Shown here: in pieces, positions 29,823-35,950 of the stretch | Layout: each line of letters opens with the position of its first letter | How positions within the stretch are numbered: position 1 is the first letter of the stretch | DNA from: an uncultured bacterium | Lineage (GTDB): Bacteria; Actinomycetota; Acidimicrobiia; Acidimicrobiales; VFJN01 | Assembly: GCA_963756425.1 (NCBI GenBank) | Contig: CAVWNW010000003.1 | Span: forward strand, 117,642 to 181,641 | Direction: 5' to 3' | DNA: 64,000 bases | Translations under genes and position numbers: made by a program | The notes under the pieces: generated by a model | The model's input: the letters and a program-made list of their open reading frames with translations, nothing else | Database searches by the model: none | Told to the model about the DNA's origin: nothing

Positions 29823-30584
29823 GTGATCGACCTGGACTGGCACGCCGCCGGCGAGCATCTCGTGTCCGCCCGAGCGGGCGACGTGGCGCTGCTCCGCCTC
29901 GACCGCCCGGCGAAGCTCAACGCCCTCACGCCGGCGATGCTCCCCGCCATCGCCGAACGGATCCGCGGCCTCGCTGCGGAGTCGGCCGGGTTGGTGCTCA
30001 CCGGCACCGGGAGGGCCTTCTCGGCCGGCGATGACCTCGACGCCACGGCCGACCTGGACCGCGGGGGCTTCGAGGCGGTGATCGCAGGCTTCCAGGACAT
30101 GACGCGGGCCGTGCTCGACACCGAGGTGCCGGTGGTGGCGGCGCTCAACGGCTTGGCGGTCGGCGGGGCGGCCGAGCTGACGCTGGCCTGCGACGCCCGG
30201 GTCGGCGGGCCCGAGGCGGCCTTCTTCTTCCCGGAGAACGGCATCGGCCTCACGATCTCCAACGGCTCCACTTACCTGCTGCCCCGCATCCTGGGTACCC
30301 GGGCCCTACCCCTCGTCCTCGCCGGGGGGCGGATCGACGCCGCCGAGGGGCTCCGGGTAGGGCTGTTGACCGAGATCGCCGACGATCCGACGCAGCGGGC
30401 GGTCGACATGGTGGGGGCGTGGGCCGCCGAGGGGCACGCGACCCGATGGCACCTGCGGTTGATGCGGCCAGACCCGACGGTCGTGGAGGCGGCGATGGCT
30501 CGCGAGACGGTCGCCGCCATGGAGGTGTTCGACGCCGGCATCGCCACCGCCGGCGCCGCCGCCTTCCGTGACCGGCGGCCATGA
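29823..30584 (+). CDS. Enoyl-CoA hydratase/isomerase (crotonase fold)
   Basis: LRLDRPAKLNAL, LTGTGRAFSAGDDL and AALNGLAVGGAAEL motifs. Confidence 0.8.
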   Translation: MIDLDWHAAGEHLVSARAGDVALLRLDRPAKLNALTPAMLPAIAERIRGLAAESAGLVLTGTGRAFSAGDDLDATADLDRGGFEAVIAGFQDMTRAVLDTEVPVVAALNGLAVGGAAELTLACDARVGGPEAAFFFPENGIGLTISNGSTYLLPRILGTRALPLVLAGGRIDAAEGLRVGLLTEIADDPTQRAVDMVGAWAAEGHATRWHLRLMRPDPTVVEAAMARETVAAMEVFDAGIATAGAAAFRDRRP

Positions 30585-30764
30585 CCGTCCCGCTTCGGGG
30601 GCTGCGCCCCCGCACCCCATCGTCGCCCGGCTCCCTGGCGGTCGCACGGCCGACCGGGCATGAGCTGCGCTCATGACCGTCCCGCTTCGGGGGCTGCGCC
30701 CCCGCACCCCATCGCCGCCCGGCTCCCTGGCGGTCGCACGGCCGACCGGGCATGAGCTGCGCTC
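30581..30764 (+). repeat. 92-bp tandem direct repeat x2 (1 mismatch) between the hydratase stop and the ligase start
   Basis: Copies lie at 30581-30672 and 30673-30764 and differ only at 30623 (T) versus 30715 (C). A third ATGACCG begins the next gene at 30765. Confidence 0.95.
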
Positions 30765-32312
30765 ATGACCGCCCACCTGCGTCGAGCTGCCGACCTGGAC
30801 TGGACCCTCGGGGAGCTGGTGGAGCGGCGCGCCGCAGAGCACGGCGACCGGGTGCTGCTGCGATTCGGCGACGGCCAGACCCTGTCGTTCGCAGGGCTGG
30901 CGGCGCGGGTGGCCACCGTGCGCTACCTGCTGGCGGCGCGGGGCGTCGGGCCGGGGGATCGGGTGGCGCTGATGATGCGCAACTCGCTGCGCTACCCGGT
31001 GGCATGGCTGGCCGTCACCTCCGCGGGGATGGCGGCGGTGCCGGTGAACAGCCGGTCGGGTCCGTTGGACAGCCGCCACCTCATCGACCACAGCGGCGCC
31101 CGGCTGGTGATCGCCGACGACACCACCGCTGCGACGGTGCACGCGGCGATCGCCGGGATCGACCGGGGGGTCGCCGTCGAGGACGCGTCGCTGCCGGACT
31201 GGTCGCAGCCCGGACTGGGCCGCGGCGCGCCACCCGCCGACATGCCGGCGGGCGCACTCGCCGGCGTCCAGTACACGTCGGGGACGACCGGACTCCCCAA
31301 GGGCTGCATGCTCAGTCACCGCTTCTGGCAGCAGATCGGCCAGTCCTCCGCCGATGTGTTGCGGCTCGACGAGTCGAGCGTGCTCCTGAGCGCCCAGCCC
31401 TTCTCGTACATCGACCCGCTCTGGAACGTCGTGGCGGCCCTGCGGGCCGGCGCGGAGTTGGTGATCCTGGACGGCTTCCACCCGTCGACGTTCATGCGCT
31501 CCGTCGCCGAGTGGGGCGTGACCACCTTTTACTGCCTGGGCGCGATGCCGGTGCTGCTGATGAAGCAGCCGCCCGCGGAGCACGACCGCACCCACCGCCT
31601 CAGCCACGTGGCGTGCTCCGCCATCCCTCCCCGGCTCCACGCCGCCATCGAACAGCGTTGGGGCGTGCCGTGGTACGAGCTGTTCGGGATGACGGAGACG
31701 GGGCTGAACCTGGCCGTGCTGGAGGACGACCACGACGAGCTGGTCGGAACCGGCAGCCTGGGCAGCGTGATGAGCCACTGCGAGGCCAAGGTGGTGGACG
31801 ACGCCGGGATCGAGGCGCTGCCCGGAGCGCAGGGCGAGCTCGTGGTGCGCGGCGTCGGGCTGATGGACGGCTACTACGAGAACTCCGAGGCGACCGCGGC
31901 GTTCTTCGCGGGCGGCTGGGCCCACACCGGCGACATCGCGGTCCGCGACTCCCAGGGCCGGTTCACGCTGCGGGGACGCATCAAGGACATGATCCGTCGC
32001 GGCGGGGAGAACGTGGCCGCCGCCGAGGTCGAGGGGGTGCTGGTCAGCCACCCCGCCGTGCTCGAGTGCGCCGTCGTCGCCATGCCCGACGACGACCTCG
32101 GGGAGGAGCTGCGCGCCGTCGTCGTGCCGGTCACGGGCGAAGCGCCGTCACCCCGGGAGCTGCGGGAGCACGTCGCCGAAAGGCTGGCCCGCTTCAAGGT
32201 TCCCCGTTACTGGGAGTTTCGCTCGGAGCTCCCGCACACGCCATCCGAGCGCGTCGCCAAGCATCGCATCGGTAGGCCGGAGGCCGACCTCATCGACCTG
32301 GCGGGTGGCTGA
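30765..32312 (+). CDS. AMP-dependent acyl-CoA synthetase/ligase
   Basis: VQYTSGTTGLPKGCML, FGMTETG and GDIAVRDSQGRFTLRGRIKD motifs. Confidence 0.85.
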   Translation: MTAHLRRAADLDWTLGELVERRAAEHGDRVLLRFGDGQTLSFAGLAARVATVRYLLAARGVGPGDRVALMMRNSLRYPVAWLAVTSAGMAAVPVNSRSGPLDSRHLIDHSGARLVIADDTTAATVHAAIAGIDRGVAVEDASLPDWSQPGLGRGAPPADMPAGALAGVQYTSGTTGLPKGCMLSHRFWQQIGQSSADVLRLDESSVLLSAQPFSYIDPLWNVVAALRAGAELVILDGFHPSTFMRSVAEWGVTTFYCLGAMPVLLMKQPPAEHDRTHRLSHVACSAIPPRLHAAIEQRWGVPWYELFGMTETGLNLAVLEDDHDELVGTGSLGSVMSHCEAKVVDDAGIEALPGAQGELVVRGVGLMDGYYENSEATAAFFAGGWAHTGDIAVRDSQGRFTLRGRIKDMIRRGGENVAAAEVEGVLVSHPAVLECAVVAMPDDDLGEELRAVVVPVTGEAPSPRELREHVAERLARFKVPRYWEFRSELPHTPSERVAKHRIGRPEADLIDLAGG

Positions 32313-32323
32313 GCGGTCCCGGG

Positions 32324-34261
32324 CTAGTCGGCGTGCCCGCAATGCTCCTCGGCGGGCGGCACGTCGAGCGCCGGGTTGCGATCGAAGAACCCGAAGGGCG
32401 TGAGGAGGAAGCCGCAGTACTCGACCGGCATCACCGGCCAGTCCTCGGGCCGCACGAAGTGGGTGACGCCGAACGTGTACCACACCACCACGTCGGCATC
32501 GACGAGGGACCGGTCCTGCGCCGTCCAGCTGGGCAGGCCGTCGCGGCCCTCGTGCTGGTTCACGTAGTCGCCGGCCGCCCGCCGCTCCCGATCGGCGTAG
32601 GGCGTCACCCACAGGTTGTGGCGCGCGAACCCGGCGCGCTTACCGATCGGCGAGTCGGCGTGTGCGAACAGCGTCGGTGTGGTCGTCGCCGGGACGAGCC
32701 TGTAGGCGACGGGCTGGCCGAGGCCGTTGCGCGACTGCGGGTTCACGATCCGCCAGCTACGCGACCGCGCCGGGTCGATCTGGCGTTGCGCGCGTTGTTC
32801 GGTGTCGAGCCGCGTCGCCTTGGCGCGGAATGCGTTCATCCACGGGTTGTCGGGGCCGGGAGGCAGCGGGTCGGCGTCGACCTCGTGGACCTCGTTGACG
32901 CAGCCGTCGACGTCGAAGTCGAGCCGGGCACAGAAGAGATGCTGGTGGTGCGGGGCGGCGACGCCCTCGGCGACGACGTTCGCGAACTCCGGCTGCGTCC
33001 CCGGTTCGATGGCCATCGGTGAGACGATGCCCGTCAGCTTGACCTCCAGCTGGATGTTGCCGTCGAGGTAGAGGTACCAGTAGAAGCCGTAGTCGTAGTT
33101 GCCGACGGTGCTGATGAAGCTCAGCACCAACCGGCGGCTCCTCCGCACCTCGCCGCGTCCGCTCTGCAGGTCGACGTGCTTCCACAGGATCCCGTAGTCC
33201 TCCTCGTGGATGCAGATGGCGTTCTCGATCGCCCAGGGCTCGCCCTGCTCGTTCGCGAGCATCGCGTCGACGTAGCGGACCTCGCCGACACAGTCGCAAC
33301 CGAGCGCGAGCGGCTGCGTCAGGCGGCCGAGCCCCCACTCGCCGGCATCGAACGCGTTCTTCCAGCCGTGCAGCGGGCCGGCGTCGCCGTACGGGACGAC
33401 CATTTCGGCAATCGACGCCCGATGGAGCACCGGGCGAAGTCGTCCGTCATCCTCGTAGGCGACCTCGTGCAGGACGAGGCCCTCGTGGGGATCGAACGAC
33501 ACCCGCAGCTGCCACTTCTGCCACCGCACGAGGTTGCCGTCGACCGTGAAGCTCGGGCCGTCGGGCTGCGAGATCGAGATCGGCTTGAGGTCGGTACGCA
33601 GCGCCGGATGATCCTCGACCCAGAAGTTCGCACGGTTGGGTGGCAGGGGCACGACACCGTGGTCGATGACCTCGATCACCTCGTTGTTCCCGAGGTCGAA
33701 GTGGACGATCACGCCCTCGATCGGGCGGGCGTAGCCGTTGTCGGTCGCGTCCGCACGCAGGAACGAGATGCAGCGCGCGATCCGGCGTCCTTCCTCGCAG
33801 TCGTAGCCGAACGTCCCGGCCGGCCACGGGTCGATCTGCACCGCCTCGAGGTCGGTGATGCCCCGCCGCGCGAGCGCCGCCCGGTACTCGGGATGCTCCT
33901 TCGTGGTGGCGATCGCGTACAGCGCTTCCGTCATCAACAGCGCCGGCCGCCTGCCCTCGACCTCGTGCCACTCGCGCACCTCGCCGCGGGTGACCGACAC
34001 GACCGCCTCGACCAGCGTCAGCCCGGGACCGGGCACGATCTGCGCACCCACCTCGCGCTCGATCGGGTCACCGGCCTTCCAGCGTGCCAACTCGTCCTTG
34101 GTGGGCTCGCGCAGCACGACGTGGGCGAACAGCGCCTCGTCGCCCACCCGTCCCGTCGCCCGCAGCACCTCGACCGCGCGCGTGATCTCGTCGGCCGTGA
34201 GCATGTCGAGGGGATGAGCCATACGGAATCCTGCCGCGGGATCAGTGGCCATGACCACCAT
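32324..34261 (-). CDS. Copper-containing primary amine oxidase (TPQ cofactor)
   Basis: TPQ precursor motif TVGNYDYGF and copper-ligand block APHHQHLF. Candidate starts are 34261, 34252 and 34222. The upstream 550 aa of the 1197-aa ORF is an antisense artefact. Confidence 0.85.
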   Translation of the reverse strand: MVVMATDPAAGFRMAHPLDMLTADEITRAVEVLRATGRVGDEALFAHVVLREPTKDELARWKAGDPIEREVGAQIVPGPGLTLVEAVVSVTRGEVREWHEVEGRRPALLMTEALYAIATTKEHPEYRAALARRGITDLEAVQIDPWPAGTFGYDCEEGRRIARCISFLRADATDNGYARPIEGVIVHFDLGNNEVIEVIDHGVVPLPPNRANFWVEDHPALRTDLKPISISQPDGPSFTVDGNLVRWQKWQLRVSFDPHEGLVLHEVAYEDDGRLRPVLHRASIAEMVVPYGDAGPLHGWKNAFDAGEWGLGRLTQPLALGCDCVGEVRYVDAMLANEQGEPWAIENAICIHEEDYGILWKHVDLQSGRGEVRRSRRLVLSFISTVGNYDYGFYWYLYLDGNIQLEVKLTGIVSPMAIEPGTQPEFANVVAEGVAAPHHQHLFCARLDFDVDGCVNEVHEVDADPLPPGPDNPWMNAFRAKATRLDTEQRAQRQIDPARSRSWRIVNPQSRNGLGQPVAYRLVPATTTPTLFAHADSPIGKRAGFARHNLWVTPYADRERRAAGDYVNQHEGRDGLPSWTAQDRSLVDADVVVWYTFGVTHFVRPEDWPVMPVEYCGFLLTPFGFFDRNPALDVPPAEEHCGHAD

Positions 34262-34327
34262 TTCCGCTGCAGGTTTCGGCGGGGCGGCGGACTTTCGCCG
34301 GGGCGTGGGATCCTCGATCCTGGTGGC

Positions 34328-35950
34328 GTGCAGGGGGAACGACCGACCCAACGGTGGAACGCATCGGGCCGCCGCAGCCTTTGGGGCTGGGGGCTGGCCG
34401 CCGACGAGCCGACGGACGACCAGCGGCGCCGGCTGGCCGGGACGCTGGCCCGGCGCTACGGCGTCGAGGCACGCGTCGAGGCGGCGGTCTCGATCGACGA
34501 CGCCGAGCTGCGCGCACCGCGCGTCGCGGTTCCGGCCGCACTCAGCAGTGTGTGCTCCACCGACCGGTGGGAGCGGGCCCGCCACACCTACGGCATGGCC
34601 TACACCGATCGGCTGCGGGCCTTCCGGGGCCGGTTCGACACTCCACCCGACGTCGTGGCGTTTCCGGCGGACGAGGCAGAGCTCGAGGCGGTCCTCGACT
34701 GGTGCGACGCGTCGGGCCACGTGGTGGTGCCGTTCGGCGGCGGGTCGTCGGTGGTGTGGGGCGTGAACCCGCCCGCCGACGCCGCGAGCGTCGTGACGAT
34801 CGACCTGACGTCCATGGACCGGGTGCTCGAGGTCGACCCCACGTCCCGGGCCGCCCGGATCCAGGCCGGGGCCCTGGGCCCCGCCGTCGAGGATCAGCTG
34901 CGCCCACACGGCCTGACGCTGCGGCACTTCCCGCAGTCGTTCGAGTGGTCGACCGTGGGGGGCTGGATCGCGACCCGCTCGGGCGGCCACTACGCCACGA
35001 ACCACACGCACATCGATGACTTCGTCGAGTCCGTCCGCATGCTCACCCCGTCGGGCTGGTGGGAGTCGCGACGGCTCCCGGGGAGCGGCGCCGGTCCGAG
35101 CCCCGATCGCCTGGTGCTGGGCAGCGAGGGCACGTTGGGGATCGTGTCCGAGGCTTGGCTGAGGCTCCAGGCCCGGCCGACGTTCCGCGCCTCGGGCGGC
35201 GTGCGCTTCCCGGGCTGGGAAGCGGGCTGGCAGGCGGTACGGGCGATCGTCCAGGCGAAGCTGTGGCCGGCCAACCTCCGGATCCTCGATCCGCTCGAGG
35301 CCCAGCGGGGCGCCGGCCTCGACGGGAACACGGCGTTGGTGATCGTGGGCTTCGAGTCGGCCGACGTGTCCCAACGCGCCAACATCGAGGCCGCCGTCGC
35401 CCTCGCCCGCGACCACGGTGGCGAGATCGCCGACGACGAGATCAGGACGGCCGACGCCAGGACGCCCACCGGTCGCGGCGGCGCGGTCGGGGCCTGGCGT
35501 GACAGCTTCGTCGGCTTCGACCTCAACACCATGACGGGGCTCGGCCTGGTGACCGACACGTTCGAGACCGCGATCACGTGGGATCGCTGGCCCGACTTCG
35601 ATGCCGACGTGCGGTCGAAGGTGGGACGGGCGCTCGACGAGGTGTGCGGCGGCGGCCTGCTCAGCTGCCGGTTCACCCACGTCTACACCGACGGGCCGGC
35701 GCCCTACTACACGTTCGGGGGAATGGGCCGGCAGGGCGGCGAGGAGCAGCAGTGGGCGGAGCTCAAGGAGGCGGCCTCCGAGGCGGTCGTCGCCGCCGGG
35801 GGCACGATCACCCACCACCATGCGGTCGGGCGGATGCACCGCCCTGCCTACGATCGCCAACGGCCGCGCCTCTTCGCCGCCGCGCTCCGGGCGGCCAAGC
35901 TGGCCGTCGACCCGCATGGGCTGCTGAACCCGGGCGTCCTCGTCGACTAG
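34328..35950 (+). CDS. FAD-linked oxidase, alkyl-DHAP-synthase/GlcD-like (PCMH FAD-binding domain)
   Basis: N-terminal RWN..SLWGWG and FAD domain VVPFGGGSSVVWG. GTG 34328 is the first in-frame start, 66 bp from the divergent amine oxidase. Confidence 0.75.
   Translation: MQGERPTQRWNASGRRSLWGWGLAADEPTDDQRRRLAGTLARRYGVEARVEAAVSIDDAELRAPRVAVPAALSSVCSTDRWERARHTYGMAYTDRLRAFRGRFDTPPDVVAFPADEAELEAVLDWCDASGHVVVPFGGGSSVVWGVNPPADAASVVTIDLTSMDRVLEVDPTSRAARIQAGALGPAVEDQLRPHGLTLRHFPQSFEWSTVGGWIATRSGGHYATNHTHIDDFVESVRMLTPSGWWESRRLPGSGAGPSPDRLVLGSEGTLGIVSEAWLRLQARPTFRASGGVRFPGWEAGWQAVRAIVQAKLWPANLRILDPLEAQRGAGLDGNTALVIVGFESADVSQRANIEAAVALARDHGGEIADDEIRTADARTPTGRGGAVGAWRDSFVGFDLNTMTGLGLVTDTFETAITWDRWPDFDADVRSKVGRALDEVCGGGLLSCRFTHVYTDGPAPYYTFGGMGRQGGEEQQWAELKEAASEAVVAAGGTITHHHAVGRMHRPAYDRQRPRLFAAALRAAKLAVDPHGLLNPGVLVD

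Follow-up and report, generated by a model that had tools for sequence, protein, structure and literature searches.

Uncultured high-G+C Actinomycetota, mostly with Acidimicrobiia-type genomes, carry a dispersed family of repeats of about 92 bp. Two of these stand head to tail between an enoyl-CoA hydratase/isomerase gene and an acyl/carnitine-CoA ligase-type gene in the 64,000-nucleotide stretch of DNA analysed here (the window). We think it likely that the two units are copies of a non-autonomous selfish repeat, akin to the mycobacterial MIRUs, which is tolerated through termination–reinitiation that would preserve translation of the gene downstream.

Tandem units at the hydratase–ligase junction

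What occupies this junction? All the features described lie on the forward strand. The hydratase gene (29823–30584), identified from the list of open reading frames, its translation and a Pfam match to ECH_1 (E = 9e-29), encodes 253 aa, as do its orthologues, and its stop TGA (30582–30584) falls inside an ATGA. This ATGA belongs to the first of three direct repeats CATGACCG (30580–30587), which holds both the hydratase stop and the start of a small open reading frame, sORF1. The first 92-bp unit (30581–30672) is found by Tandem Repeats Finder (TRF), in the ORF list and by nhmmer with the family profile (E = 1e-20); its sORF1 (30581–30676) has the product MTVPLRGLRPRTPSSPGSLAVARPTGHELRS. The second CATGACCG (30672–30679) forms the joint between the units. 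The second unit (30673–30764; TRF, and nhmmer at E = 9e-20) has a C at 30715 and carries sORF2 (30673–30768), each sORF being of 31 codons. The third CATGACCG (30764–30771) contains the regenerated start codon of the ligase gene (30765–32312), whose translation of 515 aa matches Pfam AMP-binding (E = 7e-71) and AMP-binding_C. Nearly all close homologues of the ligase are of 515 aa, with an identical start.

A script comparison of the two units found one difference, T30623 in the first versus C30715 in the second. At the homologous site a T is present in all six other units from five orthologous loci, which marks C30715 as derived. TRF places the array at 30580–30771 (period 92, 2.1 copies, 99% matches) with a score of 377, by far the strongest tandem repeat in the window; the runner-up scores 56. 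With up to 3 mismatches allowed, both halves of the unit match the window at the two unit sites only (0 in 100 shuffles), and the family profile likewise finds just two copies there. The initial annotation had described this same arrangement: a 92-bp duplication with a single base change, set between a hydratase stop in the first ATGA and a ligase start at the third, with a 31-codon ORF in each unit. Sequence, script, TRF and ORF list confirm it. Exact-sequence look-ups found neither the window hydratase nor the window ligase on record; the closest match in the genome collection is 92–95% identical in nucleotide sequence.

Was the unit inserted into an ATGA junction, as was first proposed? To answer this, we compared orthologous hydratase–ligase junctions, a comparison that the initial annotation had called for. 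They hold no unit, one, one plus a footprint, or two. In L002–L009, with ligases 88–90% identical, the site is empty: the two genes meet in a bare 4-nt ATGA overlap, and the sequence reads CATGACGG. One unit is present in L001, L086 and L119, one unit with a 15-nt footprint in L026, and two units in both L100 and the window. The anchor-to-anchor distance is 61 nt at the empty site, 153 nt with one unit and 245 nt in the window. As the two genes overlap directly in ATGA where no unit is present, the unit was inserted, and the proposal is borne out. We conclude that one unit entered the hydratase/ligase overlap in an ancestor of the lineage.

A dispersed family at start codons

How widely is the unit distributed? 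Its 22-nt core was located in 73 genome stretches (many MAGs and Desertimonas flava) and in at least 120 metagenome contigs; the carriers are mostly Acidimicrobiia-type MAGs and D. flava, and single MAGs hold at least 10 loci with the core. Among the carriers are D. flava SYSU D60003, a 4.9-Mb contig of Ilumatobacteraceae 5N028 and Mb-scale MFD MAG contigs. Searched with a profile, 1.27 Mb of fetched loci yielded 235 copies. These form 201 arrays (171 single, 26 double, 4 triple), so that 30 of the 201 contain two or more units. The other units of the family are about 85–90% identical to that of the window, and length variants of 95, 152 and 89 nt exist. The boundary motif includes the palindrome TCATGA, and units of a reverse-orientation subfamily (about 89 nt) likewise have an ATGA-to-ATGA sORF, with GGAGG 5′ of the regenerated start. 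The cultured strain, D. flava, has a variant form flanked by GCTCGGCCGT repeats.

The copies lie directly 5′ of the start codons of genes that are unrelated to one another. Nine downstream genes encode unrelated enzymes and transporters, in which the Pfam domains begin at residues 1–48. In 107 of 145 arrays the right-end ATG is in frame with the downstream coding sequence, as judged by best GC3, and in 69 of the 145 an upstream coding frame terminates at the left TGA. The search of relatives suggested by the initial annotation has thus revealed a large family that is scattered, yet keeps its frame and its place at start codons, rather than copies strewn about without a conserved frame. Matches of the core in Streptomyces sp. 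NBC_00083 and in a Myxococcales MAG were set aside as chance 22-mers, the rest of the unit being absent. The core is absent from viral contigs, and the idea of a phage vector was rejected. A literature search found no described MIRU-like family in Acidimicrobiia.

Where does the unit begin and end? Its left and right boundaries have only (C)ATGACC(G) in common. At 52 independent sites, identity past position 7 of the boundary equals that of the control, and a long target-site duplication is unsupported; at a few sites 9–13 nt are shared across the boundaries, which may reflect conversion. There are no terminal inverted repeats: the ends of the consensus are non-complementary with a flanking repeat of either 6 or 8 nt removed, and an inverted copy of CATGACCG lies inside the unit, at positions 74–81. 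Subterminal hairpins are present (see below), and the fixed motif ATGACC is consistent with an IS200/IS605-type PATE or a REP–RAYT system. We speak of mobility because of the distribution of the family and one locus with empty and filled sites, neither terminal inverted repeats nor a partner enzyme having been found.

Mini-ORFs and hairpins within the unit

If the unit enters start codons, how is the downstream gene translated? The direct repeat (C)ATGACC(G) flanks the insertion, so that the original ATG(A) is preserved on the left and a new one is recreated on the right. The length of the unit is 2 mod 3, and no stop codon interrupts the frame set by the left ATG; a ribosome starting there would therefore read 31 codons and terminate at a TGA whose bases overlap the following ATG. 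In the window this predicts a relay, by termination–reinitiation, from the hydratase to sORF1, thence to sORF2 and finally to the ligase. Such a relay would keep the ligase translated despite the hairpin over its start and without a Shine–Dalgarno motif, and insertions at start codons would be tolerated because it preserves downstream translation. Judged from the sequences, the sORFs appear to be translated with reinitiation at their ends, the mini-ORF probably handing ribosomes on to the gene much as in mycobacterial MIRUs. We infer a selfish element that works as these do, with little harm to translation.

Is the frame of the sORF maintained? Of 88 distinct units, 86 have a start codon, a frame free of stops and a TGA at positions 94–96 that shares bases with the following ATG. 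Indels fall into six length classes, of which four (+60, +3, −3 and −12) preserve a multiple of 3; the remaining two, +4 and +5, are both from L080, whose contig has homopolymer errors. The unit is often open in frames +2 and +3 too (78 and 71 of the 88 units), so that an open frame taken by itself is weak evidence. Within 11 orthologous clusters, however, substitutions number 37/19/52 at sORF codon positions 1, 2 and 3 (p = 7e-5); read in the sORF frame, a fraction of 0.49 is synonymous, versus 0.31–0.34 and 0.19–0.20 in the other two. The same test applied to real genes gave 16/12/70. The phase signal is confined to the orthologous clusters; codon-position entropy over the whole family is not significant (p = 0.11). 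At the hydratase–ligase locus the peptides are near-identical although the units differ by 1–10 nt. The sORF peptides, forward and reverse, have no match in Pfam or NCBIfam. L001 has CTG as its left codon in place of ATG or GTG, so maintenance of the relay is not strict. Taken with the layout and the indel classes, the codon phase supports the relay sORFs that had been suggested from the window.

Each unit also contains the two 7-3-7 hairpins first noticed there. Hairpin 1 (CGGGGGC-TGC-GCCCCCG) lies at 30596–30612 in the first unit, with a 7-bp stem and the loop TGC (−14.1 kcal/mol, z = −1.5), and recurs with the same sequence at 30688–30704. It is situated in the near-invariant family core CGGGGGCTGCGCCCCCGCACCCCATCG; across 84 units, 98% of cells are paired and covariation is absent. 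Hairpin 2 (family positions 76–98) is at 30656–30678 in the first unit (−14.9 kcal/mol, z = −2.9) and at 30748–30770 in the second (−13.7 kcal/mol, z = −3.1), its stems CATGAGC-TGC-GCTCATG occupying 30659–30675 and 30751–30767. The 3′ arm holds the sORF1 stop and sORF2 start in the first unit, and the sORF2 stop (30766–30768) and ligase ATG (30765–30767) in the second; no Shine–Dalgarno motif precedes the ligase ATG there. Compensatory changes support this hairpin over the start codon throughout the family: both sides have changed in 6 of 10 pairs, with double changes in 29 cells where shuffles give 6.9 ± 2.2. In 48 of the 84 units the base facing the start-codon A is a mismatch. In about a quarter of units AGGAG stands instead 8 nt 5′ of the ATG, which would allow the downstream gene to start independently. 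As to their role, these conserved hairpins may act in mobilisation, in making the downstream start dependent on coupling, or in both.

The repeat region as a whole folds no better than shuffles (z = −0.27), and the same is true of the whole unit. An RNAalifold structure of the family proposed another pairing within the invariant core, which lacks covariation and was not relied upon. Rfam returned nothing above chance for 30000–31300 (E ≤ 10) and no match at gathering score in the whole window.

Origin of the units and related elements

How did one unit become two? Neighbouring units in arrays differ by 0–9 nt, 15 of 16 pairs by 0–5 nt, and units at different loci by a median of 14, so local duplication is favoured over repeated insertion. 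The second copy in the window is thus probably a recent local duplication, made by slippage or unequal exchange between CATGACCG repeats. Might the entire structure be a local event, in which slippage on a chance microhomology of 7–8 nt doubled an ordinary 92-bp intergenic spacer, without a mobile element? CATGACCG does lie on either side of the unit, and the unit has a marginal similarity to the 5′ end of the ligase gene, 35 of 1000 shuffles scoring as high; that alignment also prompted the idea that the unit had decayed from a copy of this end, an idea dropped given the dispersed family. However, units about 85–90% identical are present at more than 200 other places, beside unrelated genes, and the ancestral junction has no spacer at all. 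By these comparisons a purely local event, in itself exceedingly improbable, is refuted for the origin of the unit and would apply only to the step from one copy to two. Of the origins first offered, then, the miniature insertion element stands for the unit, while slippage or unequal exchange fits the second copy; a dedicated attenuation device is conjectural. It is also hardly credible that the true genome has one copy and that the assembly either traversed a repeat loop twice or merged strain alleles with T and C. One base, it is true, separates the copies. But the joint, GCGCTC followed by ATGACCGTCCCGC, exists only in a multi-copy allele; as it is absent from the one-copy allele, reads must contain it. 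Moreover, 30 other arrays hold two or three units, some on contigs of 0.2–1.7 Mb, and the orthologous contig L100 likewise has two.

What might have moved the unit, and has it acquired a function? The units could be relics of a hairpin-guided single-strand transposon (IS200/IS605-type PATE or REP/RAYT-like), whose tyrosine/HUH transposase would recognise the hairpins and insert 3′ of CATGACC. The right end would recreate this target, favouring arrays, and the sORF would be a by-product filtered by selection. The lack of terminal inverted repeats, the two subterminal hairpins with the common centre GCTGCGC, a flanking repeat that keeps to one motif instead of varying as a duplication would, and the frequency of head-to-tail arrays are as expected of such a relic. 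Yet no partner transposase has been identified, insertion with or without target duplication looks alike in sequence, and neighbours in arrays are far more alike than loci; we consider a relic of this kind unlikely. Quite improbable, in our judgement, is exaptation, whether as a rheostat in which copy number and the start hairpin set the amount of ligase per hydratase or as a functional 31-aa peptide. The codon phase and synonymous fraction at orthologous loci, the near-identical peptides at this locus, the covariation of hairpin 2 and the differing number of units among close relatives at one junction speak for it. All of these are equally expected of a tolerated selfish element that needs an open frame; furthermore, the unit also precedes unrelated housekeeping genes, the constraint is weak compared with real genes, the peptide belongs to no Pfam or NCBIfam family, and L001 has no canonical sORF start. 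A further reading, which we regard as doubtful, posits that the units form a large and hitherto undescribed family of mobile ‘coupled mini-cistrons’ for which start codons are the homing sites. In it the sORF is translated and selected, the hairpin ties translation of the host gene to that of the element, TCATGA permits either orientation and copy number is a heritable dial. Were it true, the family would offer the comparative depth to find the mobilisation machinery of MIRU-like repeats.

The tolerated, MIRU-like selfish repeat that we prefer invites comparison with the MIRUs themselves. These have served for decades in tuberculosis strain typing, and have unit lengths of 53 and 77 bp; to our knowledge their movement and the importance of their coupled sORFs are still unsettled. 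Like theirs, the unit length here is 2 mod 3. According to PMC12548453 (citing Supply 1997) and PMC3184786, MIRUs are mobile elements with start codons as their insertion sites and with an sORF that is coupled at −4 nt, and are units of 40–100 bp dispersed at tens of loci, as is the 92-bp unit at many loci here. The likeness to those accounts extends to the start-codon or intercistronic site, co-oriented with the genes; to sORF ends that overlap the neighbours' stop and start by the −4 nt of ATGA; to head-to-tail arrays that vary in copy number between strains; and to empty and filled orthologous sites with short direct repeats. On the other hand, the hosts are Acidimicrobiia-type Actinomycetota rather than Mycobacterium, and the 92-bp unit with its 95-, 152- and 89-nt variants, the covariation-supported hairpin over the downstream start codon, and the TCATGA palindrome at the boundary with its reverse-orientation subfamily of about 89 nt are differences from MIRUs. 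One MIRU sequence, the 53-bp MAP MIRU292 (PMC7977185), was aligned locally with the unit, and on neither strand did the score exceed that of dinucleotide shuffles.

The MIRU design (insertion at start codons, ATGA-to-ATGA mini-ORFs, variation in tandem copies) thus recurs in a distant actinobacterial class without similarity to the one MIRU tested. This suggests that the design is one to which selfish DNA turns repeatedly: it takes up the base pairs where a gene is most sensitive, yet does not silence the gene. The abundance and diversity of the family suffice for empty and filled sites, covariation and codon-phase statistics and, since D. flava is a cultured carrier, the questions of coupling and of the mobilising enzyme can be approached both experimentally and computationally. 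For annotation there is a warning: 92-nt ‘intergenic spacers’ at operon junctions in these genomes are repeats, and the adjoining start codons are regenerated ones.

How do the units compare with other small repeats? With the MITEs that have terminal inverted repeats (such as Correia, ERIC and Nezha) they share small size, the lack of a coded transposase, dispersal, empty/filled polymorphism and short flanking direct repeats; they differ in that the consensus has no terminal inverted repeats under any choice of boundary, and in their strict association with start codons and conserved frame. REP/BIME and IS200/IS605-derived palindrome elements likewise have a G+C-rich hairpin core, no terminal inverted repeats and possibly a fixed target motif, but REPs lie mostly 3′ of genes and have no relay ORF. 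The Rickettsia palindromic elements, too, are selfish and tolerated since the host gene can be translated with them in place. They, however, lie in frame inside coding sequence and become part of the protein, whereas the unit described here forms a separate coupled mini-cistron upstream.

A repeated unit in the hydratase–ligase junction

What separates the enoyl-CoA hydratase ORF (29823–30584, + strand, ECH_1) from the AMP-binding CoA ligase ORF (30765–32312, + strand, AMP-binding) in the window? To answer this we read the sequence from 30301 to 31020, which contains a 92-bp unit at 30581–30672 and a second copy at 30673–30764. A script check found a single difference between the two, T30623 versus C30715. 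Tandem Repeats Finder gives the pair a score of 377 (period 92, 2.1 copies, 99% matches), while all other tandem repeats of the window score 56 or less. With up to three mismatches allowed, either half-unit matches the window at these two places only, and shuffles nowhere. An ATGA overlap marks each of the following: the hydratase stop, both boundaries of the 31-codon ORFs of the two copies (sORF1, 30581–30676; sORF2, 30673–30768) and the ligase start. The initial annotation had described a 92-bp tandem duplication with one T-to-C change, unit boundaries in ATGA stop/start overlaps, and two hairpins (hairpin 1, 30596–30612; hairpin 2, 30659–30675 and 30751–30767). All of this is borne out; the duplication is real and its first interpretation essentially right. 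A 507-codon ORF at 30752–32275 (+), which begins at an ATG inside hairpin 2 and crosses the ligase gene in another frame, was rejected as a high-G+C artefact on its Arg/Gly/Ala-rich translation.

Was the unit inserted? A protein search with the window ligase found numerous close homologues, nearly all of 515 aa. The contigs of ligases 90% and 88% identical have a 4-nt hydratase/ligase overlap from which the spacer is absent. The contig of a 96% identical ligase carries exactly one unit, 7 nt different from window copy 1 and with CTG, not ATG, at its start. Between two conserved anchors the junction measures 61 nt in eight empty contigs, 153 nt in the relatives L001, L086 and L119, and 245 nt in the window; a further contig, L100, also has two units. 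At 168 nt, the junction of relative L026 comprises one unit and the 15-nt remnant GCGCTGCGCTCATGA. These lengths show that a 92-bp piece was inserted into a bare ATGA overlap, as the initial annotation had proposed. We conclude from the comparison of sequences that the bare overlap is ancestral and that the insertion was followed by repeated changes of copy number.

Two of these junctions carry further traces. In L026 (4644–4811) the remnant follows the hydratase stop and precedes the unit; it has the look of a right end left behind when an upstream unit was lost by deletion between TCATGA repeats. In the one-unit orthologue L086 (518–670) the ligase starts ATGACCGTTCCCCTG (MTVPLRR), a copy of the unit's first 13 nt; its relatives start ATGACCGCGCACCTG (MTAHLRR). 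Two N-terminal ligase codons seem to have been rewritten by exchange between the 5' ends of unit and gene.

A dispersed family and its reading frame

How far does the unit extend beyond the window? An exact search for its near-invariant 22-nt core GCGCCCCCGCACCCCATCGYCG matched at least 120 metagenome contigs and 73 stretches of species-representative genomes; a search of viral contigs for the core found none. The genomes that bear it are almost all Acidimicrobiia, Acidimicrobiales, Ilumatobacteraceae or unclassified Actinomycetota MAGs, and a single MAG has about ten loci at most. The cultured carrier is Desertimonas flava, whose variant unit has GCTCGGCCGT flanking repeats. Exact matches in Streptomyces sp. 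NBC_00083 (L132 6096) and Myxococcales UBA1660 (L183 5441), where the rest of the unit and a profile hit are absent, were rejected as chance; they show how far the 22-mer can be trusted to mark the family. Aligned flanks yield the 92-bp consensus ATGACCGTGCATCCTCGGGGGCTGCGCCCCCGCACCCCATCGTCGCCCGGCTCGCTGGCGCTCGCGCGGTCGACCGGTCACGAGCTGCGCTC, then ATGACC. A profile built from 89 units found 235 copies in 1.27 Mb of fetched loci and two in the 64-kb window, both in the hydratase–ligase junction; the nearest contigs in the collections are 92–95% identical to the window. The unit, which the initial annotation had suggested seeking elsewhere, is one of a dispersed family with hundreds of copies, larger than a reading of the sequence alone could show.

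By number of units, 171 arrays are single, 26 are double and 4 are triple. Adjoining units differ by 0–9 nt (0–5 in 15 of 16 pairs), whereas units of different loci differ by a median of 14, so local duplication is the main route of array growth, unless arrays are homogenised. The one difference in the window pair is typical. Since all six other units at orthologous loci have T at the homologous position, C30715 is a post-duplication change.

Are the sORFs translated? A start codon at 1–3, an open frame and TGA at 94–96 occur in 86 of 88 distinct 92-nt units, so that the mini-ORFs running from ATGA to ATGA, first described in the window, are a family property. Since 78 and 71 units are also open in the two other frames, an open frame by itself is weak evidence in DNA of 72% G+C. 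Copies fall into length classes of 92 nt (102 copies), 152 nt (18), 95 nt (9), 89 nt and 80 nt, and each corresponding indel (+60, +3, −3 or −12) is divisible by three. The exceptions, of 96 and 97 nt, both lie in L080 (2025–2217) and have extra bases in homopolymer runs; this contig appears error-prone, and every unit apart from these two has a length of 2 mod 3. Across 11 orthologous clusters, substitutions at sORF codon positions 1/2/3 number 37/19/52 (columns 20/20/18; p = 7e-5), and the synonymous fraction is 0.49 in the sORF frame versus 0.31–0.34 and 0.19–0.20 in the others. In the same test, real downstream genes score 16/12/70 over their first 20 codons. At the hydratase–ligase locus, a difference of 3–7 nt between units leaves the encoded peptides identical or almost so. 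These counts amount to a constraint of coding type, weak but significant, of which translation would be the simplest reading.

In the 152-nt variant (L028, L029, L046, L062, L099, L103, L113, L122, L134 and L161) a 60-nt insert follows CCCGGCTCGCTGGCT and leaves the sORF frame open (e.g. L099 3237–3389). The insert is a long imperfect palindrome (GTCGACCCAACT...AGTTGGGTCGA) and may be a nested element.

Start codons and hairpins

Where do the copies lie? We took 145 arrays with 300-nt flanks, the coding frame being that of highest GC3. In 107 of the 145 the downstream coding frame is in phase with the right-end ATG or GTG, and in 69, in addition, the left ATGA or GTGA supplies the TGA that ends an upstream coding frame. 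Many of the remaining arrays have a GGAGG-like motif ahead of the left ATG. Nine downstream ORFs at independent sites, with Pfam domains beginning at residues 1–48, encode unrelated products: class IV and class I/II aminotransferases, ABC ATPase, Ppx/GppA, acyl-CoA dehydrogenase, fumarase, ArsA-like ATPase, MFS transporter and phosphoglucomutase. The element is therefore no cis-regulator of a single pathway. Its placement indicates that it occupies start codons generally, with the old start kept at the left and a regenerated one at the right.

The direct repeat that flanks the element amounts to little more than (C)ATGACC(G) across 52 independent sites; past position 7 the two boundaries are as alike as shuffled pairs. 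The element has no terminal inverted repeats (TIRs). Because the boundary contains the palindrome TCATGA, the reverse strand too reads from ATGA to ATGA. A reverse-orientation subfamily (L011, L013, L023, L057, L058, L063, L078, L093, L128, L165, L175 and L194) shares the core, turned round relative to the downstream gene, and lies ahead of genes on the other strand, with GGAGG or GAGGA 5–8 nt ahead of the regenerated ATG and ATGAGCG flanks. Its members are mostly 89 nt long (also 83, 86 and 101 nt), lengths that are no independent evidence since the search demanded 2 mod 3.

What of the hairpins, which share GCTGCGC? Among 84 aligned units, hairpin 1 (16–22 with 26–32) is paired in 98% of cells; being nearly invariant, with pairing partly forced by the search pattern, it is uninformative either way. 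Hairpin 2 (76–85 with 89–98), whose 3' arm spans the stop of the sORF together with the downstream start codon, has changes on both sides in 6 of 10 pairs. Its double-change cells number 29 versus 6.9 ± 2.2 in shuffles (0/500), and slid partners reach at most 13. These compensatory changes bear out the hairpin first noted over each start codon. Opposite the A of ATG the base may be T, C or G; a G places AGGAG in the arm, 8 nt ahead of the start. In the window it is T, giving a perfect 7-bp stem without a Shine–Dalgarno motif. For hairpin 2 the local energy lies between −13.7 and −14.9 kcal/mol (z about −3), but folding of the entire unit does not surpass that of shuffles.

A possible relay, its likeness to MIRUs, and neighbouring calls

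Given that the comparisons establish insertion in the ATGA junction, family membership, start-codon position, a frame-preserving design and hairpin 2, how might the ligase be translated? Ribosomes leaving the hydratase would reinitiate on sORF1, then sORF2, then the ligase, by termination–reinitiation at each ATGA. Such a relay would sustain ligase expression despite a start codon that is hidden in a stem and lacks a Shine–Dalgarno motif, and every extra unit would probably lower the yield somewhat. The second copy probably arose through slippage, or through unequal exchange, on CATGACCG. A candidate for moving the element is a hairpin-recognising single-strand transposase, with which the fixed flanking motif, the lack of TIRs and the two GCTGCGC hairpins are compatible.

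The nearest known system is the mycobacterial interspersed repetitive unit (MIRU), described as a mobile element that inserts at start codons and has an sORF coupled at −4 nt (PMC12548453, citing Supply 1997). An earlier review gives 40–100-bp units in about 40–50 copies, empty and filled sites at which short direct repeats occur, and ORFs that overlap adjacent genes (PMC3184786). All of these traits, of design and of function, recur in the 92-bp family, translational coupling as a putative one. MAP MIRU292 (53 bp, PMC7977185), the one MIRU sequence compared, aligns no better than shuffles. By analogy, then, the family would work like MIRUs and is not demonstrably homologous to them. No Rfam model matches the unit, and a literature search found no description of such a family in Acidimicrobiia. 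It represents not a new principle but a second, well-powered case of one that is poorly understood, and it adds new details: a covarying hairpin over the start codon, a constraint by codon phase, and use in either orientation.

Two calls elsewhere in the window probably need correction. The tRNA-Val(CAC) that ARAGORN places at 32707–32806 (+, 100 nt), opposite the copper amine oxidase coding region, has no Rfam tRNA counterpart and is probably a false positive. The longest copper amine oxidase ORF (32324–35917, −) has 1197 aa, with Pfam domains from residue 568; orthologues have 633–634 aa. The true start probably lies near 34228, and the rest is an open frame of the high-G+C type, overlapping a + strand FAD-oxidase gene.
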